Shown here one piece after another: positions 15,483 through 64,000 of a stretch of DNA of 64,000 nt. The notes below the pieces were generated by a model, which worked only from the letters and a program-made list of their open reading frames with translations, was not told the origin of the DNA and did no database searches. Positions within the stretch are counted from its first letter, which is position 1. Each line of letters opens with the position of its first letter. A program made the translations under genes and the position numbers. Origin of the DNA: an uncultured Acidimicrobiaceae bacterium (GTDB lineage: Bacteria; Actinomycetota; Acidimicrobiia; Spongiisociales; ZC4RG35); assembly GCA_964617995.1 (NCBI GenBank), contig CAZTXD010000001.1, positions 6,383-70,382 of the forward strand, written 5' to 3'.

Positions 15483-16414
15483 GAATGAACGACCTGAGGG
15501 ACCACCTCCATGCCGCTGTGGCGACCGTCGTCCGGGGCCAGACCGCCACCGTCGACGCCCTCTTGATCTCGGCCCTGGTCGGCGGGCACGTCCTGCTCGA
15601 GGGAGTCCCCGGCACGGCCAAGACGCTTCTGGCCCGGGCGGTGGCCCGCGGTCTGGGGATTCACTTCGGTAGGGCTCAGTTCACTCCCGACATGCTTCCC
15701 TCCGACCTGACGGGGACCATGACCCTCCGCGGTGGCGAACTCTCGTTCCGGCAGGGTCCGATATTCACCGGCCTCCTGCTGGCCGACGAGATCAACCGCA
15801 CTCCTCCCAAGACCCAAGCAGCCCTGCTGGAAGCCATGGAGGAGGGGCAGGTGACCGTCGACGGCGTGTCACGTCCCCTGCCGCGGCCCTTCATGGTGGT
15901 GGCCACCCAGAACCCCATCGAGTACGAAGGCACCTATCCCCTTCCGGAGGCGCAGCTGGACCGGTTCCTGATGAAGGTGCCGGTGGGGTATCCCGGTGAG
16001 GACGACGAGCAGGAGATGCTGTCCCTGCGTCGGTCGGGTCTGGCTCCAATGGGCCTCGAGGACATCGAGGCCGTCACGTCCGGGCCCGAGATCCTCGAGA
16101 TGAGGGACGAGGTCGACGACACGATCGTGGGCGATGAGGTGGCGGGATACGTCGTCGCGTTGGTGCGGCACACCCGCCGGCTTCCTTCGGTGGAGCTGGG
16201 AGCGTCACCACGGGCAGCGGTTCATCTCCTTTCGGCGGCCCGCGCTCTCGCCCGTTTGTCGGACCGTGACTTCGTCACCCCCGACGACGTGGTGAGGCTG
16301 GCACCGGGAGTTCTCACCCACCGCATCCTCATCCGCCCTGAAGCCGAGCTGGAGCGCTACCGCCCGGCCGATGCGGTTGCCGCCGCCCTCGACGACGTGG
16401 ACGTTCCCCGATGA
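15479..16414 (+). CDS. moxR: MoxR-family AAA+ ATPase
   Basis: 311 aa. Walker A GVPGTAKT, Walker B LLADEINR and overall MoxR architecture. Confidence 0.9.
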   Translation: MRMNDLRDHLHAAVATVVRGQTATVDALLISALVGGHVLLEGVPGTAKTLLARAVARGLGIHFGRAQFTPDMLPSDLTGTMTLRGGELSFRQGPIFTGLLLADEINRTPPKTQAALLEAMEEGQVTVDGVSRPLPRPFMVVATQNPIEYEGTYPLPEAQLDRFLMKVPVGYPGEDDEQEMLSLRRSGLAPMGLEDIEAVTSGPEILEMRDEVDDTIVGDEVAGYVVALVRHTRRLPSVELGASPRAAVHLLSAARALARLSDRDFVTPDDVVRLAPGVLTHRILIRPEAELERYRPADAVAAALDDVDVPR

Positions 16415-17661
16415 GCGTCACCCGTCGCGGCCTCGCTGTGCTGTCCGCCGCTGCCCTCACCGCACTCATCCTCCCCCCGGGGGCGGCCGTGGTGGTGTTC
16501 GTCATGGTGACGGTGGTGGTCGCGGCCGACGCCTGGTTGGTGCGGTCGCTCCCCGAAGTGCGGGTGGCGGTGCCGCCGATCCTCTCTCGGGGTGTCCCGT
16601 CCACTCTCGCCGTGGATGTTGAGCCGGACGTGGGCGTGATAGTGAAGATGGTGGGCACACCGGACGTCACGATCGAGCCTGAGGAGGGCCCGGGGGGTCT
16701 CGCGGCCACGGTCACCGCCGTCAGGAGGGGCAGCCATGTGCTGGCCCGCCCCGCCACCGTGGCCGATGGTCCGTTGGGCCTGGGCCGGTGGTATCACAGA
16801 CCAGGCAGCGAGACCCCGGTGGTGGTTTATCCCGACATGCCCGCTGCCCGGCGCATCGCCACCGAGGTGCGACTCGGGAAGTTCGGGGAGACCTCCCGGC
16901 GCAGCCGTGGCCCCCTGGGCCTCGGTACCGAGCTCGAGTCCATCCGCGAGTATCTCCCCGACGACGACATCCGCCAGGTGAACTGGCGGGCCACTGCCCG
17001 CACGGGAACGCCCATGTCGAATACCTACCGGATCGAACAGGAACGCGAGGTGCTCGTGCTGCTGGACACCGGGCGGCTCATGGCCGCACCGGTGGGTGAC
17101 GGGACCGAACGCACCCGTCTTGACGTGGCCGTGGACGCGGCGGCGGCGGTTGCCTCCGTTGCCGACGTGGTGGGCGACCGCGTCGGCCTGGTGGCGTTCG
17201 ATGCGAAGCTGCGTCGTCGCCTCCTTCCCCGCCGGGACGGCGGCGACGTCGTGGTGACTGCCATCCATGACCTCGAACCCACGGCCGCGGAGTCGGACTT
17301 CGAGCTGGCCTTCCGCACGATCGCTCACAACAAGCGCGCTTTCGTCCTGATACTCACGGACCTGCTCGAGGAGACCGCCGCCCGTCCCCTCCTCGACGCC
17401 GCCCCGATCCTCGCCCGTCACCACGCCATCGCCGTGGCCGGGGTCGCCGACCCGGCCGTTTCGGCGGCACTGTCGACGCCCGCCTCTTCGGTCGAGGACG
17501 CCTTCCGGACCGCCACGGCGATAGACATCGAGACGTCGCGCCGGCGAGTGGCGACGCGACTCGACGGCTATGGAGCCACGGTGATCGACGTCGCTCCCGA
17601 CCTCCTCCCCTCCCGGTGCGTGGCCGCCTACCTGCGCGCCAAGCGACGGGCACGTCTCTGA
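16411..17661 (+). CDS. DUF58-domain protein, vWA-like partner of MoxR
   Basis: 416 aa. N-terminal TM segment plus the conserved DUF58 core (REYLPDDDIRQVNWRATARTG...). ATGA overlap with moxR. Confidence 0.8.
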   Translation: MSVTRRGLAVLSAAALTALILPPGAAVVVFVMVTVVVAADAWLVRSLPEVRVAVPPILSRGVPSTLAVDVEPDVGVIVKMVGTPDVTIEPEEGPGGLAATVTAVRRGSHVLARPATVADGPLGLGRWYHRPGSETPVVVYPDMPAARRIATEVRLGKFGETSRRSRGPLGLGTELESIREYLPDDDIRQVNWRATARTGTPMSNTYRIEQEREVLVLLDTGRLMAAPVGDGTERTRLDVAVDAAAAVASVADVVGDRVGLVAFDAKLRRRLLPRRDGGDVVVTAIHDLEPTAAESDFELAFRTIAHNKRAFVLILTDLLEETAARPLLDAAPILARHHAIAVAGVADPAVSAALSTPASSVEDAFRTATAIDIETSRRRVATRLDGYGATVIDVAPDLLPSRCVAAYLRAKRRARL

Positions 17662-17669
17662 ACCCTTCT

Positions 17670-17704
17670 GGTTGCCTGCGAACGGATAGCGTTCGCAGGC
17701 AACC
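17670..17704. terminator. Bidirectional hairpin, 15-bp perfect stem
   Basis: GGTTGCCTGCGAACG-gatag-CGTTCGCAGGCAACC lies between the convergent DUF58 and SpoIIM-like genes. Confidence 0.6.
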
Positions 17705-17725
17705 AAAGAAGAGGGAGACCGTTCG

Positions 17726-18688
17726 TCACGGTCCAGAGAAAGCCCCGCCGCGCCACCACAGCAGGATCCAAAAGGTGGCCCCCAGGACCACTCCCACCAC
17801 CGCCGTCGGTGCCAGCGACAACCCCACCCGACTGACGTACCCTTCCACCAGCCCCGCCACCGCCAGCCACGGTGCCGTCCCGCCCGCCAGGAGCAGCGAC
17901 TGGCGCGCCTCATGTGCCATCGACTCGGTCCTCGTGCGGTGGCCGGGACGGAGCATCGCCCGTCCCAGGCTGAGGCCGGCAGCCCCGGCCACGATGATGC
18001 AGGACAGCTCCAGCACGCCGTGGGCCATCGTCGCCTCTCCCAGCAGCGCCAGGTTGCCGGCACCGGCGGCAAGTCCGGTCAACGCACCGAACAGCACACC
18101 GTTGTAGCCGATCAACAGGGCTGTTCCCACCCCCCAGGTGATCCCGGCCACGAAGGCCGTCAGGGCAACACGAATGTTGTTGGTGAGCACGAACGTGCTG
18201 AATCCCGCCAGGCCGACCGCCCCCAGACCCTGATCGGTGGTGTCGGCCTCCATCACCCAGAGGAATTCGACCGGTACCAGCCCCGCCACCGTTTCGGGTG
18301 CGCTAACTGCCCACAGCCCCATGACGACTCCGGGAATGAAGAGGACCACGCCCGCCAGGGCCAGTGCCCGACGTCTCTCCCACAGCAGTACCCAGTAGCG
18401 GTCGGCGAAGAAGTCGATCAGGTTCCCGCGGCGGTTGCTTCGTTCGTAGATCAGGCCCTGACCGGCTCTGACGAGCCGTTCCAATCGATCAACCAGCGGG
18501 TCCCCGGGGAAGTGGCGGCGGGCGGCTACGAGGTCGGCCGCCACCGCCCGGTACAGGGCCGCCAGACGCCGGATCCGTTCGCCTCCCAGGCGCTCCGGCC
18601 GCCGACCCGCCTCCTCCAGGAGCTCTTCCAGCTCCCTCCAGCGGGGCTGGCGGTCGCTTTCGAACCGACGTAGCGTGTCCACATGCAC
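17726..18688 (-). CDS. SpoIIM-like (DUF95) integral membrane protein
   Basis: 320 aa with several TM helices, a family habitually found in MoxR-DUF58 loci. The annotated GTG start overlaps the divergent RDD start; the true start may be the GTG at residue 3. Confidence 0.6.
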   Translation of the reverse strand: MHVDTLRRFESDRQPRWRELEELLEEAGRRPERLGGERIRRLAALYRAVAADLVAARRHFPGDPLVDRLERLVRAGQGLIYERSNRRGNLIDFFADRYWVLLWERRRALALAGVVLFIPGVVMGLWAVSAPETVAGLVPVEFLWVMEADTTDQGLGAVGLAGFSTFVLTNNIRVALTAFVAGITWGVGTALLIGYNGVLFGALTGLAAGAGNLALLGEATMAHGVLELSCIIVAGAAGLSLGRAMLRPGHRTRTESMAHEARQSLLLAGGTAPWLAVAGLVEGYVSRVGLSLAPTAVVGVVLGATFWILLWWRGGAFSGP

Positions 18689-30353: not shown

Positions 30354-31792
30354 GCACGGGGGTAGGGCTTCGCCGCCGCCTCATCTGGTCCCTCATCGGC
30401 GTGATCGCAGTCACAGTCACGATCGTGGGGACGGCCTCCGCCGTCCTCGTCGATCGATCACTCCGCGGCCGTCTGGTGGCCAACGCCGTCGCCTCCGCCG
30501 AGTTCAATCTCACGGTCCTCGCTCCGGCCGCGGGGCTGGGGGCGTCACCGTCCGCGGCCCAGGTGGAGGACTCAGGAGTCCTCGACCGGATCCTGAGCCG
30601 GGAGATCGACGGGGTCTGGGTCGAGATGGACGACGGAGCGAGACTCTCAACCGGTGCCGGCCAGGCCGACGTATCCGACGATCTCCGTGAGATCGCCGAC
30701 GGCGGGGAGATCGGATATGAGTTCACGGGTTCGTTGCGTGGCCCGGTGCTGGTCACGGCGGCACGCCTGCCGCCCTCGGGACCGAACTTCTTCTTCGTCA
30801 CATCGACTGCGGCGATCTCCGACATCATCCGGCAGATCATCTGGGTGATCGCAGGTACAGGTACCGCCGCGGTTCTAATCGGCTCGTTGGTGGCGTCCGG
30901 GCTGGCCCACCGACTGCTCGTTCCGGTTTCGGCGGCACGGGAGGCCGCCGAGAGGATGGCGGACGGCGACCTCGGTGTGCGCCTGCCCGCAGGAGGCGGC
31001 GACGAGTTCGGTCAGCTATCGGACTCCTTCAACCGTATGGCCCGCTCCCTCAGCGAGACGATCGAAGAGCTGGAACAGGCCCGATCACGCGAGCGACGTT
31101 TCGTGGCGGACGTGTCCCATGAGCTGCGCACGCCACTGACCGGCCTGGTCAACGAGGCCCGGATCCTGGCAGACAAGCTGGGATCGGCGACCGAGGTCGA
31201 CGACGACCATCGCGCCATCGCGGCGATGCTCGACGGCGACGTCGCCCGGTTGCGTCATCTGGTCGAAGATCTGCTGGAGATGTCGCGCCTCGACAGCGGG
31301 GAGACGGGCGCCGAGATGACCGACGTGGACGTCACTGCTTTTCTGGAGGCTCTGGCGGGAGGCCGCCACCCGGGTGCGACCGTCGTCTCCGATGTCACCC
31401 ACCCGATCGCGACGGACCCGCGGGCGCTGGAGAGGATCGTGGGCAACCTCCTCGACAACGCCCGGCTGCACGCCCCCGGCGCGGAAACGACCGTCAACGC
31501 CTCCCTCCAGGCCCGCCATCTCGTAGTCGAGGTGGCCGACAGGGGCCCGGGTGTCGATCCCGACCGCCTCGATGGCCTCTTCGAACGTTTCTCCACCGGG
31601 GACCCGGCACGGAGCGCGGGTACGGGTCTGGGACTGGCGATCGCCTCCCAGCACGCCCATCGCCTCGGAGGCGACCTGCGAGCCGACCTCCGGCCGGGGG
31701 GCGGCCTGTCGATGACGCTCCGTGTACCTGTTGGGGAACTGTTACACGACGGTGACGGCTCTGCGATTCCTCTGCCTCACTCTGATGGATGA
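30350..31792 (+). CDS. mtrB: Sensor histidine kinase, MtrB-like
   Basis: 480 aa. Two TM helices, a HAMP domain, an H-box (VSHELRTPLTGL) and HATPase G-boxes. ATGA overlaps with both neighbours. Confidence 0.7.
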   Translation: MSTGVGLRRRLIWSLIGVIAVTVTIVGTASAVLVDRSLRGRLVANAVASAEFNLTVLAPAAGLGASPSAAQVEDSGVLDRILSREIDGVWVEMDDGARLSTGAGQADVSDDLREIADGGEIGYEFTGSLRGPVLVTAARLPPSGPNFFFVTSTAAISDIIRQIIWVIAGTGTAAVLIGSLVASGLAHRLLVPVSAAREAAERMADGDLGVRLPAGGGDEFGQLSDSFNRMARSLSETIEELEQARSRERRFVADVSHELRTPLTGLVNEARILADKLGSATEVDDDHRAIAAMLDGDVARLRHLVEDLLEMSRLDSGETGAEMTDVDVTAFLEALAGGRHPGATVVSDVTHPIATDPRALERIVGNLLDNARLHAPGAETTVNASLQARHLVVEVADRGPGVDPDRLDGLFERFSTGDPARSAGTGLGLAIASQHAHRLGGDLRADLRPGGGLSMTLRVPVGELLHDGDGSAIPLPHSDG

Positions 31793-33267
31793 AACTCGGA
31801 CAAGGAGTGATCTTGCGTAGGTTCATCCCTCTCATCTCCGTTCTGGCTCTCGTGTCGGCCTGCGGTTCATCGGGCGCTCAGAGCGGCGGCCCTCTGACGG
31901 TGCCGACCACGGCAACGACACCCGCCACGTCGCCGGGTCCGGACACGACCACCCCCCCGGTCAGTACCAGCACCGTGGTCACCGACAGCACTCCTACCAC
32001 CACCGTGCCGGGAACACCCACGACCGCCGGGCCCACCCAGCCGCGGGCGGCGACCATTACGGTCTTCTTCCTGAACGATTCGGGTGAGGCGATCCCGACC
32101 ACGCGCCCGACCACGACGAGCGCAGTGGCGAGGGCAGCTCTCGACGCTTTGATAGCCGGCCCCGACGCTCCCGAACACGCCGCCGGTCTTTCAACGGAGT
32201 TCCCCGCCGACAGCCTCGTCCTGGGCGTGGCCGTCTCCTCGGGTCTCGCCCGGGTGGACATGTCGCGGGAGTTCGAGGCGGGAGGTGGTTCGGCTTCGGT
32301 GCTGGGACGGCTTGCCCAGCTCGTCTACACGTTGACGGAGTTCGACAGCATCGATCGGGTCCAGCTGCTGCTAGACGGCGAGAGTATCGAGTACTTCTCC
32401 GGTGAGGGGGTGCTGGTCGGTTCGCCGCTCACCCGGAGCGACTTCACCGGAGCGGTGCCGATCGGGGCCACGCACGAGGGCTCGGGCTCGAGCACCTGGG
32501 ACCAGGACGACCTACCCATCGTGAGGATCGGAGATCCCGCCGTCCACAGGGTGGTCCTGGTCGCCGGCGACGACTTCCTCAACGTCCGTGACGCCGCCGG
32601 CGTGGAGGGAGAGATCATCGGGCGCTTGCTCGGCGGTGTGGCGGTTCGTACCACCGGTGAGTCGGCGACGGTGGGGTCATCGACATGGATGCGGATATCG
32701 ACCCCGGCGGGGCCGGGCTGGGTGAACGGGTTCTATCTCACCCGGTCTGTGGCCGGCGACGACTTCCCCGATGGCACCGACCCGTTGGCCGTGGTCGCGG
32801 AGCTGGCTGATCGGTTCGCCTCGGGTGAGGACTTCACCGACCTGGTGTCGAAGAAGGGCCTGTGGGTGGCTCATCACGACTCACCGATCCGGTTCCAGGT
32901 AGGGGAGATACGCGGACTCCTCGCCGATCCCACCACCTATCGTTGGGGCTCCAACGCCCTCGAACCCGGAAGCCCCGAGATCCAGCCCCGGACCTTCGCG
33001 GAGGCGGTGGCGGAGACATTCGTCGACACCTACGACGATCCCGACCGCCAACTTCACGTCAACCGGGCGGTGGAAGGGCCCAACGGACGTCCCGTCGAGT
33101 TCGCCGTACCCACCGAGTTCGGCGGATTCCCCTTCGTGGTCGTCTACGACCCCGGAGATGAAGCCCGTTATGAGGGTCTCGACTGGATGAGCTGGCTGGT
33201 GTCCCTCTCCTACGAGGATGGCGCGCTGAAGGTGGTGGGACTCACCATCGACCAGTGGGCTCCCTGA
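31789..33267 (+). CDS. lpqB: Lipoprotein LpqB-like (GerMN domain)
   Basis: 492 aa. Signal peptide with lipobox LVSAC, a Thr/Pro-rich linker and a GerMN domain. Completes the mtrA-mtrB-lpqB triad. Confidence 0.65.
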   Translation: MKLGQGVILRRFIPLISVLALVSACGSSGAQSGGPLTVPTTATTPATSPGPDTTTPPVSTSTVVTDSTPTTTVPGTPTTAGPTQPRAATITVFFLNDSGEAIPTTRPTTTSAVARAALDALIAGPDAPEHAAGLSTEFPADSLVLGVAVSSGLARVDMSREFEAGGGSASVLGRLAQLVYTLTEFDSIDRVQLLLDGESIEYFSGEGVLVGSPLTRSDFTGAVPIGATHEGSGSSTWDQDDLPIVRIGDPAVHRVVLVAGDDFLNVRDAAGVEGEIIGRLLGGVAVRTTGESATVGSSTWMRISTPAGPGWVNGFYLTRSVAGDDFPDGTDPLAVVAELADRFASGEDFTDLVSKKGLWVAHHDSPIRFQVGEIRGLLADPTTYRWGSNALEPGSPEIQPRTFAEAVAETFVDTYDDPDRQLHVNRAVEGPNGRPVEFAVPTEFGGFPFVVVYDPGDEARYEGLDWMSWLVSLSYEDGALKVVGLTIDQWAP

Positions 33268-33297
33268 TCCCGGCGGGACCGAGAATGACCTCCCCCA

Positions 33298-34779
33298 TCA
33301 CGGATAGTGATCGGGGAGGTCGTTTTCGTAGAGGACGGTGTCTCCCTGCCCCAGATGCTCGCGCACCCAGGAGACGGCGTGGTCCCGGTCGGCCACCTGA
33401 GTCGTTCGCATCCCGGCCATCGAGGCACCCTCCGAGAGCGCCTCCCGGTTGGTGCTGCCCACCACCACGAGCTCGTCGGCGACGCGTCCCGCCTCGAACG
33501 CGAACGCCCGGTTCTCCTCGTGCTGGCGGGGCCCCAGCTCGACCATCCCCGGGGTGACCACCACCCGCCTCCCCGGCACGGGCATTTCCTCCAGGACCCG
33601 CAGTGCCGTCCGGGCACCCGCCGGGTTGGAGTTGAAGGTGTCGTCGATCACCACCACTCCCCGGGACCCCGTCACGACGGTACGCCTGTGCTCCGGTTCG
33701 GAGAGGCCGGGGAGACGCCGCGAGAGGGCTACCGGTTCGATACCCAATGCCACGGCCACGCCCACGGCGCAGGCGACGTTCCCGGGATGACCAGGGGAGG
33801 GGGCGTCGCCCACTGCCTCTCCACCGACCAACACCCGGCCATCCGCCACGGTGACGTCCAGCCCTTCGGCCGTCCCGACGCGAATCACCCTCCTCCGGGC
33901 CTCGTGGGTTTCGGCCAGGGTGGCCAGCCTCGGGTCGTCGACGTTGAGGACGGCGACGCGGGCTCCTTCCAGGATCTCCGCCTTGGCGGCTACGATTCGC
34001 TCCTCGGTCCGGAATCGCTCGAGGTGCACCGGTCCGATGGCTGTGATGACGGCGATGTCGGGGGGTATCCAGCTACAGAGATCGGCGATCTCCCCGGGGC
34101 CGTAGGTGCCCATCTCGGCCACGAACACGTCGACGTCACCAGCGAGATGCTCGTTCACGGCGCGAGCGAGCCCCATCCGGTTGTTGAACGAGGCCGGGCT
34201 CGCCAGCACACGTCGCTCCGATGCCAGCAGCTGGGCGACATATCCCTTCGTGGTCGTCTTGCCGTAAGACCCTGTGATGGCGACCACCTCGGCGCCCGAT
34301 CGTCGAAGCGCTGCCGCGGCCGTCGCCACCCACGGTCCTCCCAGGCGTCTCTCCAGGGGGGCGAGCACCGCCAGTGCGACATCGAAGAGCACCGGGAGCG
34401 CCGCCACCGTGACCGCCGCCACGACCGGCCGACTCGACCATCCGATCGAGAGCCCGACGGCGGCCATCGCCCCCACGGCAACCGCGAGTCGCCTGAGACG
34501 AGGGGTCCACGCCAGCGGCGAGGTTCGCCCCTTGACACCGAGACCGGGGGGCCCCATCGCCACCGCCACCGCTGCCACCAGCGCTGCCGGCGGCTGCCAG
34601 GTAGATGCGACCACGGCGACGGCGGTCAGGGCGGCCAGGGTCACAGCTCTGGAGTCGGCCGTCCACCAGCGCCGGGCGAACCTGATCACCGAGCCGGCCA
34701 GGTAGTGCTCTCTCTGCGCGACCCGCAGCCACCGCAGAGAAGACAGCACCGCCGAGCCTGCCAGGGCGACGACTATCAC
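33298..34779 (-). CDS. Membrane-anchored Mur-ligase-family protein (MurF-like)
   Basis: About 493 aa from the GTG at 34779, which overlaps the upstream stop (GTGA). About 190 N-terminal residues contain 4-5 TM helices. The Mur ligase P-loop ITGSYGKTTTK and a central/C-terminal domain follow. Confidence 0.6.
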   Translation of the reverse strand: MIVVALAGSAVLSSLRWLRVAQREHYLAGSVIRFARRWWTADSRAVTLAALTAVAVVASTWQPPAALVAAVAVAMGPPGLGVKGRTSPLAWTPRLRRLAVAVGAMAAVGLSIGWSSRPVVAAVTVAALPVLFDVALAVLAPLERRLGGPWVATAAAALRRSGAEVVAITGSYGKTTTKGYVAQLLASERRVLASPASFNNRMGLARAVNEHLAGDVDVFVAEMGTYGPGEIADLCSWIPPDIAVITAIGPVHLERFRTEERIVAAKAEILEGARVAVLNVDDPRLATLAETHEARRRVIRVGTAEGLDVTVADGRVLVGGEAVGDAPSPGHPGNVACAVGVAVALGIEPVALSRRLPGLSEPEHRRTVVTGSRGVVVIDDTFNSNPAGARTALRVLEEMPVPGRRVVVTPGMVELGPRQHEENRAFAFEAGRVADELVVVGSTNREALSEGASMAGMRTTQVADRDHAVSWVREHLGQGDTVLYENDLPDHYP

Positions 34780-38737: not shown

Positions 38738-39001
38738 ATGTTCGAGGCTGTCGAGTTCGTTGACCGCAAAGAGGAGCCGACCGCACCACCCGAAGAGCGG
38801 ATCCTGGGAACGTTCGTGGACGAGGCCGAGGCGGTCGAGGCGGCACGGAACGCTCGCCGCGAGTTCGACCATCCCGAGGACTACGCCTGGTGGATCGTGC
38901 GCCAGAGTGGCGCACGCGTGGCGCGCTGGATCGCCGACTCCCGCAGCAGCAAGGAGTTCGTGCTCGACCTCACCTCAGGCGAGCTCGTCGAGGTGGAATG
39001 A
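38738..39001 (+). CDS. Small acidic hypothetical protein
   Basis: 87 aa ORF, not overlapped on either strand, with reasonable codon usage. Followed immediately by a heptamer microsatellite. Confidence 0.3.
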   Translation: MFEAVEFVDRKEEPTAPPEERILGTFVDEAEAVEAARNARREFDHPEDYAWWIVRQSGARVARWIADSRSSKEFVLDLTSGELVEVE

Positions 39002-39064
39002 GTCGGAAGTCGGAAGTCGGAAGTCGGAAGTCGGAAGTCGGAAGTCGGTTTTCGGTGGTCGGTT
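39001..39064. repeat. Tandem heptanucleotide repeat (AGTCGGA)x5 followed by two degenerate 14-mers (GTCGGTTTTCGGTR)
   Basis: Perfect 7-nt units seen directly in the sequence. They are non-coding because 7 is not a multiple of 3. An inverted AACCGA partner lies at about 39068-39096. Confidence 0.8.
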
Positions 39065-39116
39065 TTCGGTAGGCAAGAACCGATGACTGACAACCGACAA
39101 CGGGGTCTCCCCTAGG

Positions 39117-44223: not shown

Positions 44224-44257
44224 GGACCAGCAGAATAGCCTCGGCTTGGGAACCTTT

Positions 44258-44289
44258 CCAATCAATTGGTAGATTATCCAATTGATTGG
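44258..44289. promoter_or_regulatory. Two 12-bp palindromic operator-like sites (CCAATCAATTGG and CCAATTGATTGG), centres 20 bp apart, flanking TANNNT -10-like hexamers
   Basis: AT-rich island in the 72-bp divergent arsR-like/MFS intergenic region, seen directly. Confidence 0.55.
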
Positions 44290-44295
44290 TAGGTT

Positions 44296-45549
44296 ATGCA
44301 AGTGCCGGTCGAACCTCCTCAACCCGCTCCACCGGACGGACCTTTCCTCCGTCTCGTTGCCTCCTCGGGTCTTTCCAATCTGGCCGACGGGATATTCAAG
44401 ATCGGTCTCCCGCTGGTAGCGGTCGCCTTCACCCGCTCGCCGCCGCTCGTAGCCGGGCTCGAGCTGGTGCGCACGCTGCCGTGGCTGCTGGGGGCCCTGC
44501 CCGTTGGTGCCCTGGTCGATCGTCTCGACCGTCGCCACACGATGCTGGTGTCCAATCTGGTCCGGACCGCGGCGGTCGCCGCCCCCGCGGTGGCCATCGG
44601 CGCCGATCAGGGATCGATCGGGCTGCTGTACCTCGCCGCCCTCGCCACGGGGCTGGCAGAGGTGTTCTATGACACCGCGGCTCAATCCCTCGTGCCGAGC
44701 ATCGTTGCCCGTTCGGATCTCGACCGCGCCAACGGTCGACTCTATGCCGTCGAGCTCGGCGCCCAGGAGTTCCTCGGCCCACCCCTATCCGGCCTCCTGA
44801 TCGCCGTTGCGCTGTCCCTGTCCTTTGCCGCGTCCGGTGCTCTCTGGATCGTCGCCATCGTCGTCCTTCTATCGATACGCGGCCCGTTCCGACCGGTCAG
44901 GACCGGCGAACCCGCGACGCTGCGGGCAGACATCCGGGAAGGCGCTCGGTTCTTGCTGGGCCGGCCCCTCCTCCGGACCATGGCCCTGATGGTCGGCATG
45001 ACCAACCTGGCAACCAGCGCCGTGTTCGCGGTTTTCGTTCTCTTCGCCGTGGGACCGGACTCGGCCATGCAACTCTCCGAGCCACAGTTCGGACTTCTGT
45101 TCGCGACTCTCGCCGCCGGCGCCCTGCTCGGTGGCTTCCTCGCCGAGCATGCCCAACGCCGCTTCGGTCGGGCCCGCACCCTCACCCTGTCGGTGGCGGG
45201 CATCACCGCCTACGTCGTCGCTCCCGCCTTGACCGCCAACATCGTCGCCATCGCCGTCACGATGTTCCTGAGCGGGGTCACCACGATGATGTGGAACGTC
45301 ACCACCGTGTCCTTCCGCCAGCGGGTGACCCCGGATCACCTCCTCGGTCGGTTGAACAGCGTCTACCGCCTGGTGGCGTGGGGAACCCGCCCACTCGGCG
45401 CCGTCCTCGGCGGAGCACTCGGTCAGTGGCTCGGCGTCCGTGGTGTCTTCGCCGTCATGAGCGTCCTGGCTGCGGCGACACTCGTTCCCAACCGCAGCAT
45501 CACCGAGGAGGCGCTCGTCACCGCCGAGAGCGATCCCGAATTGGAATAG
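44296..45549 (+). CDS. MFS transporter
   Basis: 417 aa with 12 predicted TM helices and an MFS-like loop motif. Confidence 0.8.
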   Translation: MQVPVEPPQPAPPDGPFLRLVASSGLSNLADGIFKIGLPLVAVAFTRSPPLVAGLELVRTLPWLLGALPVGALVDRLDRRHTMLVSNLVRTAAVAAPAVAIGADQGSIGLLYLAALATGLAEVFYDTAAQSLVPSIVARSDLDRANGRLYAVELGAQEFLGPPLSGLLIAVALSLSFAASGALWIVAIVVLLSIRGPFRPVRTGEPATLRADIREGARFLLGRPLLRTMALMVGMTNLATSAVFAVFVLFAVGPDSAMQLSEPQFGLLFATLAAGALLGGFLAEHAQRRFGRARTLTLSVAGITAYVVAPALTANIVAIAVTMFLSGVTTMMWNVTTVSFRQRVTPDHLLGRLNSVYRLVAWGTRPLGAVLGGALGQWLGVRGVFAVMSVLAAATLVPNRSITEEALVTAESDPELE

Positions 45550-54500: not shown

Positions 54501-54659
54501 GACGATTGGCTGGACCGGGCCAACGACAAGGTGGAGTCTCTGTCGGCCGGCATCGTCGCCGAGGACTACGACCCCGAGCCGTCGGTGGCATGCCGGAGCT
54601 GCGAGTTCTCCCGCTTCTGCCAACCGGGAAGCCGGTGGCTGGAGGAGAACGGCACGTGA
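51579..54659 (+). CDS. adnB: Helicase-nuclease subunit, UvrD-like motor plus C-terminal RecB-type nuclease (AdnB-like)
   Basis: 1026 aa. Walker A GAGTGKTTT and DEYQDT motifs, with a C-terminal nuclease carrying CRSCEFSRFC. ATGA overlap with the preceding gene. Confidence 0.7.
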   Translation: MIVPSPEQRAVLEAGPGPMRIAAGAGTGKTTTIALLVGHLVEHNGVEPEAILGLTFTTKAAGELADRIRAVTAPLAGQGREAEVHTYHGFAAQVIREFGALVGIERDSGVITPTFSRQLLFDVVRHRPFRHFDATWIGSVEKIQRLGAALGDHLADAADVAAGATDEEPWPERLELLAAWDDYQIEKRRLGVVDYADLISSAVRLLHQHPDVADRLRSRYRVVLLDEYQDTNPAQRILLQELFAGGFPVVAVGDTDQTIYEWRGATPDNFTSFDRHFPRAGGEAGEYRRLTINRRSDERILTVANEVRRLIDPEAASLTPSPDAGVGSVGVRWAGDAVVEADWIADRAIRLHEEGIPWSEMAVLFRKNRHMALVHDALTEREIPVEVANLGGLLSVPEVADVRAWLRILDTPEDGPSLLRILMGPHHALGLGDIAHLSRWAGGRGAALPDEAAVDHERLVEHTMLEAIDRLEDITDLPERARTRLERFRADYRRLLEIAQGASLAELTRSILDVTGVWRDVEAMGSAGRLSARLNLYRFLDLTEEWSPLEGRPSLPAFLAYLAAMEDNPADELDAARLSGEEAMALMTVHRAKGLEWDVVFLPAVTKGTFPATSSGFENPYQRPQWLPHEWRRDDPPPIDSTTPTDVATDLLRQRHLRQEWRTAYVAVTRARHRLFVSGAYWYGAPTPTVRPTQPSELFTAVAELAVTDDLGHDPEPPRPEVLRAPDRTPAPDPLFAGGWARAVRSAVDDPRTVLQKANSIGLGSAVTGTIEEFRRRLFDIDQIPLSTSPSPPATSVTGLVAYAACPQRYFWLEVDRLPRRPSPAARRGVDVHRRIELHGLGHVPMSEVDPDSYDVVEGDASDTPAPGDPYDVYRRSEYARLQPLRVEVPFRFGTDAGLAVRGRIDAVYPRDDGWEVVDFKSGRRRDDPWLLVQLQAYALAARRVDLGLPSPAHLQVSFVHLAGDLDVIRHSVDDDWLDRANDKVESLSAGIVAEDYDPEPSVACRSCEFSRFCQPGSRWLEENGT

Positions 54660-54761
54660 CCCTTCCCGCTCGGTGCTCGAGGGAGGCGGGAAGGCTCGTG
54701 CCGCCAAACTCGTCGGCCCGAGGATCGGTTTCGACCCGAGCAGGAGCGGAAACGTCGACGA

Positions 54762-55214
54762 TCACACCAGCCGACCGTTCGACGTCTCCAGGACCAGCGT
54801 GACGGGGCCGTCGTTGACCAGCTCGACGGACATCGACGCACCGAAACGGCCCTCTGCCACCGGGACCACCTTCGACAACCGCTCGACGACCTCCCCCACC
54901 AGCGACTCAGCATGCTGGGGGCGGGCGGCGGCCGTGAAGGACGGTCGACGGCCTCGGCGGGCATCGCCATAGAGCGTGAACTGGCTCACCACGAGCACCT
55001 CCCCGCCGAGATCCGCTACCGACAGGTTCATCGCCCCGGCGTCGTCGGCGAAGACCCGCAGGCCGATCAGCTTGTCAGCGATGGCCCGGGCATCTGCCCG
55101 TCCGTCGTCGTGTGCCACCCCCACCAGCACCAGCAGACCCCTGCCGATCGCCCCCACCACCTGTGACTCGACGGTGACGGCTGCCCGACTCACCCGCTGG
55201 ACGACGGCCCGCAT
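54762..55214 (-). CDS. dtd: D-aminoacyl-tRNA deacylase
   Basis: 150 aa from an internal ATG (MRAVVQRV...) with the SQFTLYGD motif. Confidence 0.8.
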
Positions 55215-55282
55215 GGAGGACATCGTAGGGAGACCGATCACCAGGGCACGCCTTCCGGTCGGACCCGGTACGATCGACCTCG

Positions 55283-57592
55283 ATGCCACTTCCCGGCCTG
55301 GCCGACATGGCCCGAGTCTCAGACATCCGGCTGCCCGCTCAGCCGCCCTGTCCGGAGGTGCCGCCCGGCCATCGGCTGGTCTTCGTTCTCGACGCCTCCA
55401 CCGGCCTGGAGGACAGGCTGCTCAGATCGTGGGCGGATCGTTGCCCGCAGGTCCATGACGTCCTGAACCTGGCCCCGTCCCGGATCCGACGACGCGGCCG
55501 CCGCACCGATCCCGGTGTCGGTGAGACGGTCACAGCGGCTACGCCGACGTGGGTGGTGCCGCTCCGGGTCGTCTGGATGCCGTCGAAGCGGTTCGGACGG
55601 AGAACCGTTTCCTGGCTGGATGTCCTCAAGCTCGGCGATCCCCGCGACCCCCGTTGGTTCCGTGACTACCTGATCCTCGCCCGGCATCCCGACCGCGTAC
55701 GGATCGTCGTGGGCGAAGGCGCCTCGGGGACGGACCTGGAGAAGGCGCACGGAGAGTCCGTGGAGCAGATCGGGTTGGCCGAGTTCGTCAACCGGCGGGC
55801 CCGCCGCGCCCTCGACCGGGCGGAGCGAACGGAAAGGGGCAACCGCTACAAGATCCCCCGTTTCGTGGCCGAGGACATACTGAACCGGCCATCGTTTCGC
55901 CAGCAGGCCGTCACCCTGGGACGGCAGCGCGGCCTGCCCGAGATGGTGGCCCTCTCCCGGGCACGCCATTACCTGGGGGAGATCGCCGCTTCCCACAGTC
56001 CCTTCCTGATCGATCTCATCGCCAATCTCATCCACTGGATCATCCGTCAGGGCTACGGGGCGATCCACTACGACCGCTCCTCCATCGAAGAAGTGGCGAG
56101 GCTGGGCAACGACCATCCCCTGGTGTTCCTACCGTCCCACAAGTCGAACCTCGATCGCCTCTCGCTCCAATTCGTGCTGTGGGAGAACGACCTCCCTCCC
56201 AATCACACGGCCGGCGGGATCAACATGAACTTCTTCCCCGTCGGCCCGCTCGTGCGCCGCACCGGAGTCTTCTACATCCGACGGACCTTCAAGGGGAACG
56301 ATCTGTACAAGTTCGTCCTCCGTACGTACCTCGACTATCTGGTGGAGAAGCGCTTCCCGCTCGAGTGGTACATGGAGGGCGGCAGGTCCCGCTCCGGAAA
56401 GCTGCGGCCACCCCGCTACGGGATGCTCTCGTGGGTCGTGGACAGCTACGCCCGGGGAAACGCCGACGACCTCTACCTGCTGCCCATCTCCATCGCCTAC
56501 GACCAGATCCAGGAGGTGGCCGCATACGTCCGGGAGGCGACGGGCGGCACCAAGGAGGAGGAGACGTTCTCATGGGCACTGCGGTTCGCCCGCAGCCTGC
56601 GACGCAGATACGGAGACATCCACATCCGCTTTGCGGAGCCGATCTCCGTCGCGGCCGAGATGGAAGGCGCCGACATCGCCGACGACGACCCGATCGAGAT
56701 CCAGAAACTGGCCTTCGAGGTGATGTACCGGATCGGCTCTGTAACGCCCGTGACTCCCACTGCCATCGTCTCCACCGTGCTGTTGGCGGCGAAGGGTCGC
56801 GCCCTCGATATCGACACAATCGCCGACCGGTGCGGGGAACTGGCCTCCTACATCCGACGACGGGGGCTGCCCACCACCGTTCCCGACCTCCCCGCCGACC
56901 CGGCTGACGCAGCCCACACGGTCGGGCTCATGTCCGAGCACGGGCTGGTGTCTACCCGCACCTCCGGGGAGAGGACCGTCTACTGGATGGACTCCTCCCA
57001 GAAGCTCCGGTCGGCCTACTACGCCAACACGGTGGTTCATTTCTTCGTCCCCCGTGGGCTGGCGGAGATCGCCATGGCCACCGCCTCCGACCTGGAGGGG
57101 TTCTGGGATGACCTGCTCGCCCTCCGGGACCTGCTGAAGTTCGAGTTCTTCTTCGCCGACAAGGAGGAGTTCCGCCGGTCCGTCGGCGACGAGCTCAGTA
57201 GCGAGGTGACCGACTGGGGATCGCGGGTGGCGGCAGGAGGAGGAAGGGAGCTCAGCCTTTCGCCCTCGACCGTGTCGTGGGCGGTGCTGCCCCTGCTGGA
57301 GGCGTATCTGGTCGTCGCCGACGAGCTGGCGGCCACGGCGGGGGAGGCCGACGAGAAGGCCCTCATGGCAGCGTGTCTGGATCGCGGCGCCGTATACCGC
57401 CTGGAGGGGCGCATCGGATCCGATGAGAGCGTCTCCCAGGCGATGTTCGGAGGGGCGTTCCTCCTGGCCCGCAACCGCCGCCTGGTCGAGGACACCCCCG
57501 ACGTGGCCCGGCGTCGCGCCGAGTTCGCCGCCGAGATCTCCCGGTTCGTATCGACCGCCACTTCCTTTTCGCGCATCGATAGCGCGCTATAG
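55283..57592 (+). CDS. plsB: Glycerol-3-phosphate acyltransferase PlsB-like
   Basis: 769 aa. Acyltransferase HX4D motif (PSHKSNLD) and overall PlsB architecture. Confidence 0.75.
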
Positions 57593-57614
57593 CGCGCTAT
57601 TGATGCGCGAAAAG
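57565..57614. repeat. 50-bp near-perfect palindrome (24-bp arms) containing a tandem 10-bp self-palindromic unit ATAGCGCGCT x2
   Basis: CTTTTCGCGCATCGATAGCGCGCTAT|AGCGCGCTATTGATGCGCGAAAAG. It overlaps the plsB stop codon and lies between convergent genes. Confidence 0.8.
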
Positions 57615-57650
57615 GGGATCCTCCTGGGCGGGCTTCGTCGACTCAACGGC

Positions 57651-58175
57651 TCAGTCCGGGTCGCGGAAGTCGGAAATGCGCTTCTTCGCCCGGGCGATCA
57701 TCTCCTCCGACGACAGCATGCGACCCGGCTCCCCTGGACCCGGCATGTCCTCGACGTTGTCCGCCAGGTCAGCCACGGCGTCTGCCAGCTTCTTCTTGAA
57801 GGCCTTCGAGTCGGGATCCTCGGGTTCCGTGGACAGATCCCTCGCCCCGCTCCGTACCTCCCGTGAGGTGCGCTCGGGGGGAGGAGGCGCCGGGGTGTAG
57901 GACACGGGTCGGGGGGGAGAGACCGGGCGGGGATGGGTGGTCGGGACGGGTCCGCCGTCGGCGGCGTCGTCGTCGGCCTCTGCTCGCTGACGTCGGCGCA
58001 TCGCCGCACCGAACAAGGCCAGGAGCAAGAACACGGCCAGACCCCCGGCCAGCAGCCCCGACGGCAGCGATTGACCGGCGACGTCCTCCAACGCGGCGAA
58101 CAGCAACGAAGCCGCGAAGAAGATGGCGAGCAGCGGGAGACACCCACAACCGATGCGTCTGGTCTCGTCTGCCAC
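57651..58175 (-). CDS. Small membrane protein with Pro-rich linker and charged C-terminal domain
   Basis: 174 aa. Two N-terminal TM helices. It is the last gene of the minus-strand rSAM/ABC operon (23-bp gap). Confidence 0.4.
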   Translation of the reverse strand: MADETRRIGCGCLPLLAIFFAASLLFAALEDVAGQSLPSGLLAGGLAVFLLLALFGAAMRRRQRAEADDDAADGGPVPTTHPRPVSPPRPVSYTPAPPPPERTSREVRSGARDLSTEPEDPDSKAFKKKLADAVADLADNVEDMPGPGEPGRMLSSEEMIARAKKRISDFRDPD

Positions 58176-62986: not shown

Positions 62987-64000
62987 ATGGCCCTTCCACC
63001 AGATCTGGCTCGCACCCTGGCCGATGAGTTCGTCCACCAGCTACCCGATCTCGACCCGGTGGAGACCCGGGAGTGGCTCGAGTCACTCGACGCTGTCGTT
63101 TCCGAGTACGGCCCGGTGCGGGCCCGGTTCCTGCTCGCCCGACTCCTCGAGAGAGCGCACGAGAGCGACCTGGGCGTACCGGCCCCGATCACCACGCCGT
63201 ATGTCAACACGATCCCCCTCGAGGAACAGCCCGACTATCCCGGAGACGGCGACCTCGAGCGCAAGATCCGACGCCTGATCCGCTGGAACGCAGCCGTCAT
63301 GGTCGTGAAGGCGAACCATCGCGAAAAGGGGATCGGGGGACACCTCTCGACGTTCGCCTCTTCCGCCACGCTCTACGAGGTTGGGTTCAATCACTTCTTC
63401 CGGGGCAAGTCCGACGACCATCCCGGCGACCACATCTACTTCCAGGGCCACGCTGCCCCTGGCATCTACGCCCGGGCGTTTCTGGAGGGTCGGCTCGACG
63501 AGACCCATCTCGACCGGTTCCGCTTCGAGGTGGGAGGAGGCGGCCTGTCCTCGTATCCGCATCCCCGCCTCATGCCGGAGTTTTGGGAGTACCCGACCGT
63601 CTCGATGGGACTGGGGCCCATCAACTCGATCTACCACGCTCGGTTCAACAAGTACCTCGAGAACCGCGGCCTCGACGAGACCTCGGACTCGTGGGTGTGG
63701 TGCTTCGTTGGGGACGGCGAGGTCGACGAGCCGGAGACGCTGGGAGCCATATCCCTCGCCGCCCGCGAGAAGCTGGGCAATCTCATCTGGGTGATCAACT
63801 GCAACCTCCAGCGCCTCGACGGACCGGTGCGGGGAAACGGGAAGATCATCCAGGAGCTGGAAGCGGTCTTTCGCGGTGCCGGGTGGAACGTCGTCAAGGT
63901 CATCTGGGGTAGCGGCTGGGACCAGCTCCTGGCCGATGACGTCGACGGTGCCCTCGTCACGGTCATGAACGAGACCGTCGACGGGGAGTATCAGCGCTAC
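62987..64000 (+). CDS. aceE: Pyruvate dehydrogenase E1 component (partial; continues past the window end)
   Basis: Manual translation gives [35 protein letters not shown]...[22 protein letters not shown], an AceE N-terminus. There is no stop within the window, so it is absent from the ORF track. Confidence 0.75.

Follow-up and report, generated by a model that had tools for sequence, protein, structure and literature searches.

In a 64,000-nt stretch of genomic DNA from an uncultured Acidimicrobiaceae bacterium (contig CAZTXD010000001.1; hereafter the window), the gene plsB, which encodes a glycerol-3-phosphate acyltransferase, ends inside a 52-bp palindrome, designated element H. Comparison with related genomes shows H to be a member of a small, clade-specific family of predicted long hairpins in uncultured Acidimicrobiia, with a 46-nt core, a 22–26-bp stem, and a 4-nt loop. 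The copy at the plsB 3′ end is best read as the product of a relocation of ~70–90 nt specific to this lineage; it now encodes the last residues of PlsB together with the stop codon. We assign a probability of roughly 0.5 to the complete explanation, in which a relocated H acts as a hairpin at the 3′ end of the transcript. Its structural and evolutionary account is very probable; its functional account, an RNA 3′-end hairpin or insulator proposed by analogy, is tentative.

A long hairpin family linked to plsB

Three features define the window copy.

57564..57615, no strand: element H, a spacer-free palindrome with 26-nt arms and one mismatch
57567..57612, + strand: 46-nt family core, TTTCGCG-CATCGATA-GCGCGC-TATA-GCGCGC-TATTGATG-CGCGAAA, scoring 83.5 bits with covariance model R1
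57601, no strand: polymorphic base in the noncoding arm, T in the window (G·U pair) and C in read sets SRR12687320 and SRR34348078

The arms (57564–57589 and 57590–57615) abut without a spacer and are complementary at 25 of 26 positions over 52 bp in total, making this the longest inverted repeat of the window. A first-pass annotation had described a 50-bp palindrome at 57565–57614 with arms of about 24 bp and a single G-T position. The palindrome and its G-T position are real, but the arms extend one base further on each side. The sole non-Watson–Crick position, G57578/T57601, corresponds to a G·U pair in + strand RNA. At the center, the self-complementary 10-mer TAGCGCGCTA is duplicated in tandem (57580–89 and 57590–99); a tandem palindromic core had been recognized before, but in a register, ATAGCGCGCT, that is not itself palindromic. 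Each arm is also internally self-complementary (CGCG...GCGCG).

The 52-mer folds with a calculated energy of −45.3 kcal/mol for the + strand and −41.4 kcal/mol for the − strand, and the 111-nt context is more stable than shuffled sequences on both strands (z = −6.3 and −6.7). On neither strand is the stem followed by a U-tract, the + strand continuing as GGGAUCCUCC and the − strand as AAGUGGCGGU, and a terminator scan of the window returned no prediction at this site. These results bear out the earlier description of a very stable hairpin that lacks a U-tract and is not a classic intrinsic terminator. On both strands, the stem itself holds a TTTT tract toward its 5′ end and an AAAA tract toward its 3′ end. 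None of 100 shuffles gave a match to the core 22-mer, and we estimate the chance expectation for such a palindrome at ~2e-8 per window.

A short-word BLAST search of the palindrome region against all fetched loci returned related sequence 5′ of plsB in relatives. There, the copies occupy the divergent intergenic region between dtd (− strand) and plsB (+ strand).

L012 2893–2947 (also L013): H copy, CCCTTTTCGCGACAGAATTGCGCGC-TATG-GCGCGCAATTCTGTCGCGAAAACGGG
L011 2893–2940: H copy, TTCTCGCGACAGAATTGCGCAC-CCTG-GTGCGCAATTCTGGCGCGAGAA
L002 3563–3613: H copy, TTCTCGCGCATCAGATGCGCGT-CATA-GTGCGCATCTGATGCGCGAAAG

A fifth copy is represented by its right half, 5′ of plsB, in a contig from the Logan assemblies (L018), which starts at the center of the element, as expected for a break at k-mer length 31. 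The copies in L002, L011, L012 (and L013), and the window (core 57567–57612) share a single 46-nt architecture, TYTCGCG-N8-GCGCRY-N4-RYGCGC-N8-CGCGARA. In a four-sequence alignment of the 22 stem pairs, 97.7% of the cells are paired, and both sides have changed in 9 of the 22 pairs. None of 500 shuffles performed as well, and sliding the partner columns abolishes the signal. The N8 segments are wholly different between genomes, yet each is complementary to its partner arm. Wobble pairs are slightly skewed, with four G·U pairs on the plsB-sense strand versus one on the other, which is weak evidence for a sense RNA. A covariance model built from this alignment, run over 168 kb (the window plus the relatives' loci), recovers these four sites and no others; the window copy, itself one of the four seeds, scores 83.5 bits (E = 1.6e-20).

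These data bear on whether the palindrome is fortuitous, which the first-pass annotation had proposed to judge by its absence from orthologous loci and from any other site. The palindrome is indeed absent from the orthologous junctions, and its exact core and arm were not found elsewhere in the window or in the sequence collections searched. However, a homologous, covarying hairpin lies 5′ of plsB in relatives, and because this hairpin carries compensatory changes, the palindrome is not a chance occurrence.

Searches for additional copies were negative. Within the window, the core 22-mer matches only itself with up to three mismatches. The exact 20-nt core (TAGCGCGCTATAGCGCGCTA) has no match in GTDB representative genomes, JGI metagenome contigs, or IMG/VR; the exact 20-nt arm (CGCGCATCGATAGCGCGCTA) has none in the first two collections; and the degenerate family pattern has none in IMG/VR. 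No match to the palindrome was returned by blastn against plasmid and phage collections. In Rfam, nothing reaches the gathering threshold (best scores of 24–35 bits versus thresholds of 70–100), the subthreshold matches being miRNA-precursor models and the antisense-RNA model AsdA. H is thus a new candidate structured element outside Rfam, linked to plsB in uncultured Acidimicrobiia. A 15/15 identity (GCGCGAAAAGGGGAT) between 63320–63334 and 57606–57620, the right end of the palindrome plus flank, was treated as a chance half-site because it lies inside a PDH-E1-like coding region and lacks a partner arm (E = 0.014).

The palindrome was also recovered independently. Three other read sets provide four Logan contigs of this strain, with 99.8–100% identity to the window. 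The plsB-side contig (SRR12687320) stops at window position 57593, and the far-side contigs (SRR34348078 and SRR12687320) stop at the mirror position, 57586. Both contig sides read ...CGCGCATCGATAGCGCGCTATAGC, with CATCGAT in both arms, which places a C at 57601 and makes the palindrome perfect in these two read sets. A contig from SRR12687321 matches the window at 100% identity and terminates at 57602, a single base short of the variable position. In a k = 31 simulation of the perfect allele, 22 k-mers are common to both arms and the unitig breaks at exactly 57593 and 57586, whereas the window allele shares no k-mers between its arms and produces no break. The contigs of two other read sets, together with the simulated breakpoints, rule out an assembly artifact. 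The palindrome is therefore polymorphic, perfect or with one mismatch, among samples of one strain.

Breaks of this kind within perfect palindromes are seen at the end of L001, the ends of L003 and L004, and the start of L018, leaving plsB at a contig end. The effect is systematic and could be used to find long perfect palindromes in Logan. More generally, because a perfect allele splits k = 31 assemblies, genes beside such elements land at contig ends in large public assemblies.

Origin of the copy at the plsB 3′ end

The features at the end of plsB are as follows.

55283..57592, + strand: plsB, glycerol-3-phosphate acyltransferase, 769 aa (PF01553 and PF19277)
57564..57592, + strand: left arm plus stop codon, coding the last nine PlsB residues, SFSRIDSAL, with TAG in the loop
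57616..57650, no strand: 35-nt spacer from the palindrome to the stop of the convergent gene, starting GGGGATCC
57651..58175, − strand: convergent 174-aa gene without a Pfam match, its C-terminus conserved with orthologues

The best database matches of PlsB are from metagenome-assembled genomes of Acidimicrobiia. Its open reading frame (ORF) ends in ...SFSRIDSAL, and the TAG stop (57590–92) falls at the center of the palindrome, which is the predicted hairpin loop; the assignment of the terminal IDSAL to the palindrome in the first-pass annotation was thus correct. So was the placement of the palindrome between convergent units, with plsB facing the 174-aa gene and two ABC-2 permease genes, an ABC ATPase gene, and a radical-SAM gene lying beyond. 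The content of this operon varies among relatives. Small ORFs replace the ABC-2 genes in L006 (7117–10235), a 173-aa gene is followed directly by the radical-SAM gene in L014 (12297–14284), and L016 (12273–16375) lacks the small gene and has a helix-turn-helix gene after the ABC genes.

The plsB loci of relatives, whose PlsB is 65–78% identical to that of the window, were compared at this junction. Eight genomes share the downstream gene, and none of them carries the palindrome at the plsB 3′ junction. The spacing from plsB to this gene is −14 nt (an overlap) in L006 and L009–L012, −12 nt (also an overlap) in L007, +3 nt in L008 and L018, and +7 nt in L014; in the window it is +58 nt. The convergent genes thus overlap by 12–14 nt in 6/8 relatives. 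Conservation of the downstream protein extends at its C-terminus through ...KKRISDF, and plsB DNA homology to the relatives fades at ~57484. From the spacing of the orthologues, the window therefore holds roughly 70–90 extra nt. As judged from these alignments, the palindrome segment is an insertion that created the IDSAL tail and its stop, not one that overlaps a pre-existing tail. The first-pass annotation had proposed checking whether orthologues end with the same residues in the absence of the palindrome; the tail encoded by the left arm is specific to this lineage. A remnant of the ancestral tail was sought to the right of the palindrome, where in-frame ...STQRLSPGR aligns weakly with orthologue tails ending ...RKLSPVRTR. 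The left arm itself also aligns weakly with RSRSPIRSR, in conflict with the right-side alignment. A small palindromic insert has separated two overlapping convergent genes and given PlsB, a central enzyme of phospholipid synthesis, a new C-terminal tail and stop codon.

The features relevant to the source of the insert are listed here.

55215..55282, no strand: dtd/plsB divergent intergenic region, 68 nt, an "empty site"
55264..55293, + strand: source-like segment a, CCCGGTACGATCGACCTCGATGCCACTTCC, comprising the plsB core promoter (TACGAT 55269–74), the ATG at 55283, and codons 2–4
57540..57565, + strand: left flank b, CCCGGTTCGTATCGACCGCCACTTCC, a putative decayed copy of the plsB −10/start region, coding ...RFVSTATS
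57545–57555 and 57634–57642, + strand: direct repeat, TTCGTATCGAC and TTCGTCGAC, offset by 87–89 nt, as read from the sequence

The 68-nt region of the window contains no H. The corresponding interval measures 115–140 nt in H-bearing relatives and 57–86 nt, without H, in L006, L008, L014, and L016/17; L009 and L010, also without H, carry an extra DUF1622 gene in it. By our reading, a TACGAT/TAGGAT box lies 7–9 nt ahead of the ATG of both dtd and plsB in most genomes, and both genes are probably leaderless. The box on the plsB side (GGTACGATC) is conserved across the relatives that were compared, and that on the dtd side in most of them. The intergenic region as a whole forms a quasi-palindrome, CAT-N7-ATCGTA ... 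TACGAT-N8-ATG (55222–55285 of the window, 3551–3661 of L002, and 2870–3003 of L012).

Left flank b aligns with segment a at 25 positions, of which 24 are identical, with two gaps. When the flank was compared with the whole window on both strands, the best match was 55251–55310, by a small margin (score 33 versus 29 for the runner-up); the match to the plsB start region has an uncorrected shuffle p of ~0.006. On the other side, the right flank opens with GGGGATCC, similar to the GGGATC found after the upstream H of L002 and of L011. The direct repeat may, as a weak possibility, be junction microhomology bounding the insert, and the ~87 nt it brackets agrees with the extra length derived from the orthologues. 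When the flanks without H were aligned in both orientations to the relatives' intergenic regions, a reverse match to L002 was obtained (p = 0.001), a rival to the direct match with the promoter of the window itself. The orientation of the insert is ambiguous because the divergent promoter region is itself quasi-palindromic.

These comparisons allow us to propose a sequence of events. Either illegitimate recombination or template switching during replication would have introduced into the plsB tail a copied piece of an H-bearing plsB 5′ region, comprising the −10/start sequence of plsB, H, and a few flanking bases. The upstream H would then have been lost, or it may never have been present in the immediate ancestor of this lineage. 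Transposition of the bare palindrome is less likely than such a segmental copy.

A further lineage-specific difference is seen next to dtd. Nine relative genomes have plsY (PF02660, a glycerol-3-phosphate acyltransferase) between dtd and the second UvrD-like helicase gene, as at 2517–3122 in L002 and 3731–4333 in L006. It is missing at window 54660–54762, where the stops of the helicase gene and dtd are only ~100 nt apart, and tblastn found no plsY anywhere in the window. A hairpin at 54651–54702 (CGGCACG..CCTTCCCGC-loop-GCGGGAAGG..CGTGCCG) sits at this convergent helicase/dtd junction and overlaps the helicase stop (TGA 54657–59); its 121-nt context shows no significant excess of stability over shuffled sequences (z = −1.3).

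Possible roles and alternative explanations

In the proposed role, plsB-sense RNA would fold into a 24–26-bp hairpin that would set the 3′ ends of transcripts, shield them, and curb read-through from one convergent unit into the other, much as hairpins of repetitive extragenic palindromic (REP) type do in 3′ untranslated regions. It would act neither as a canonical U-tract terminator nor as a simple operator. The E. coli hairpin REP325 is a partial terminator and mRNA stabilizer, and a REP between convergent genes is associated with higher expression of both (bioRxiv 10.64898/2026.03.23.713779). A 3′-end role would also fit the style of this genome, because other gene ends in the window bear long hairpins (16–23 bp). 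The retention of complementarity despite turnover of the N8 segments favors a hairpin, formed as RNA or extruded DNA, or hairpin-driven mutation, over a plain dimeric operator. The roadblock, terminator, and protein-binding site named in the first-pass annotation are all candidate roles.

Several points weigh against this explanation. The stem lacks a U-tract, and mycobacterial RNA polymerase fails to terminate in vitro at hairpins without one, even with NusA and NusG (PMC3993855). With the stop codon in the loop, a terminating ribosome would keep the left arm open. In the relatives, both dtd and plsB seem to be leaderless and H is situated upstream of the −10 box of each, so it may not be transcribed there, barring read-through from the upstream plsY operon. 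The family comprises four full sequences, and its covariation could stem from hairpin-templated correction, not selection (PMC7202029). H is dispensable, because five relatives (L006, L008, L014, L016/17, and L009/L010) have none at either end of plsB. The p values for the flank similarity, about 0.001–0.006, take no account of ~30 comparisons, and both this similarity and the limits of the insertion are insecure. The 3′-end role, finally, is put forward from analogy and sequence.

The palindrome could instead be a neutral structural mutation, a young and functionless by-product of template switching or fold-back synthesis, with its perfection and the apparent covariation of the family upheld by hairpin-templated (quasipalindrome) correction and not by selection. 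This is the strongest competitor, although we consider it unlikely. Its mechanism is established, since template switching is known to correct inverted repeats (PMC7202029), and the palindrome's absence from orthologous junctions, the dispensability of H in five relatives, and the lack of a U-tract or a known RNA family all agree with it. The arms, perfect in some samples and differing by a single-nucleotide polymorphism in others, likewise suggest youth. However, H has stayed at a single orthologous site in genomes with a PlsB only 68–78% identical to that of the window, and its 46-nt length and sequence blocks are preserved in all copies while the adjoining intergenic sequence has diverged. 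Long perfect palindromes are normally prone to deletion, so their persistence suggests constraint.

A different kind of function is conceivable but improbable, namely, that H represents a hitherto undescribed cis-regulatory hairpin dedicated to the plsB/dtd locus in a clade of Acidimicrobiia, recognized as RNA or extruded DNA by a specific factor and active at any position relative to plsB. If true, this would explain why the sole known window copy stayed attached to plsB after a move from the 5′ to the 3′ side.

Slightly less probable still is a double-stranded DNA operator, in which a dimeric or tetrameric regulator would bind H at the dtd/plsB promoters and the 3′ copy would be a displaced roadblock, decoy, or relic. 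The dyad symmetry, the conserved TTTCGCG and GCGCGC blocks, and the ~10-bp distance between GCGCGC centers are what such a site might show, and in L002, L011, and L012, H abuts the dtd −10 box and lies ~30–60 nt upstream of the plsB −10 box. However, an element of 46–52 bp that is symmetric at every position far exceeds the usual length of an operator, and N8 segments that vary yet stay complementary are predicted by a hairpin and not by protein contacts. Moreover, no regulator gene is consistently adjacent, and the window copy lies outside the promoter.

Still less probable is a low-copy mobile palindromic element, similar to REPINs or to miniature inverted-repeat transposable elements (MITEs), that transposed to the plsB 3′ end. 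H is present or absent at one site among relatives as an indel of ~50 nt, about the size of the palindrome (L002 versus the window), its position differs in the window, the self-complementarity within its arms (CGCG...GCGCG) recalls a REP doublet, and the insert is flanked by a possible short direct repeat. Yet H is a single copy in 64 kb, with no extra copy in the 168 kb of the window and relatives, and every known copy adjoins plsB. Searches of GTDB representatives, JGI metagenomes, IMG/VR, plasmids, and phages were negative, and no transposase was seen near the element in loci whose gene tables list Pfam matches. The flank carries a putative copy of local promoter sequence, which points to segmental copying rather than transposition. 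That the palindrome arose by chance or misassembly, for which its uniqueness and its absence from orthologous junctions might speak, is extremely improbable given a chance expectation of ~0, recovery from two other read sets with the breakpoints predicted for a real palindrome, and homologues in relatives.

Other repeats of the window are recorded here. The hairpin at 17669–17705 has perfect 16-nt arms (TGGTTGCCTGCGAACG-GATAG-CGTTCGCAGGCAACCA) in a stem lengthened by the flanks CCCTTCT and AGAAGAGGG; it lies in the 64-nt gap between convergent ORFs 16411–17661 (+) and 17726–18688 (−) and has a U-tract on neither strand. The hairpin at 33280–33328 has 22-nt arms, lies just past ORF 31789–33267, and is preceded by CGAGAAT and followed by GTTTTCG; its sequence has the appearance of a canonical terminator, in which an A-tract is paired with a U-tract. 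The loop (GGATAG) is similar to that of the 17669 hairpin. An array at 39001–39070, between convergent genes, comprises 6.9 perfect copies of the heptamer AGTCGGA and then 1.9 copies of a 14-nt unit, GTCGGTTTTCGGTG, and begins at the stop of small ORF 38738–39001. An unusually AT-rich inverted repeat at 44245–44302 (CTTGGGAACCTTTCCAATCAATTGG and CCAATTGATTGGTAGGTTATGCAAG), just 5′ of ORF 44296–45549 and overlapping its start, may be an operator.

Comparison with known systems

Two site-specific recombination targets were considered and rejected. A protelomerase (telomere-resolvase) target is a perfect palindrome of ~40–56 bp at a replicon-end junction beside a resolvase gene. The size of H fits, but the conserved chromosomal synteny of the relatives spans the site, and there is no phage or plasmid match. 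The same synteny rules out a dif-like site, for which the 28-bp XerCD-type architecture was compared by eye only.

Palindromic operators share the symmetry of H, and the copies in L002, L011, and L012 occupy a promoter position, unlike the window copy. MITEs are multicopy elements with terminal inverted repeats and a target-site duplication; a possible direct repeat (TTCGTATCGAC/TTCGTCGAC) was observed beside H, and no further copies were found in the 168 kb searched. The products of quasipalindrome correction and template switching in E. coli and yeast (PMC7202029) resemble H in being perfect or near-perfect, and H also has a mismatch that toggles between samples and flanks that look copied from ~2.3 kb away. 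However, those products are usually short corrections of imperfect repeats, whereas H spans 52 bp and has homologues in other genomes.

Among transcription terminators, a canonical intrinsic terminator shares with H a GC-rich hairpin directly 3′ of a gene, but H lacks the 7–9-nt U-rich tract. Like a bidirectional intrinsic terminator, H is a symmetric hairpin between convergent genes (plsB, + strand, ending at 57592, and the 174-aa gene, − strand, ending at 57651). Such terminators have a 5′ A-tract and a 3′ U-tract, whereas the polarity in H is reversed (UUUU 5′ and AAAA 3′). The U-tract-less "I-shaped" hairpins that have been proposed as terminators in actinobacteria are likewise GC-rich and located right after genes in high-GC genomes. 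In contrast, H has a 24–26-bp stem, far longer than typical, and a stop codon within its loop. Because mycobacterial RNA polymerase passes U-less hairpins in vitro (PMC3993855), H is not necessarily a terminator.

The closest parallel is with the REPs and REPINs of gamma-proteobacteria (Bertels & Rainey 2011, PMC3116915; PMC3337134), which are likewise palindromic hairpins at gene ends, including those between convergent genes. Presence that varies between related genomes and the doublet-like self-complementarity within the arms extend the likeness. However, a genome carries tens to hundreds of REP copies, which are tied to a RAYT transposase, whereas H has one copy per 64 kb and each of its known copies adjoins plsB. 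REPs are extragenic and have a GTAG head; H lacks GTAG, its left arm encodes SFSRIDSAL, and its stop codon is in the loop. H also comes from a different phylum, Actinomycetota (class Acidimicrobiia). By analogy, then, H would work most like a REP-type hairpin of the 3′ untranslated region without being a member of the REP family.

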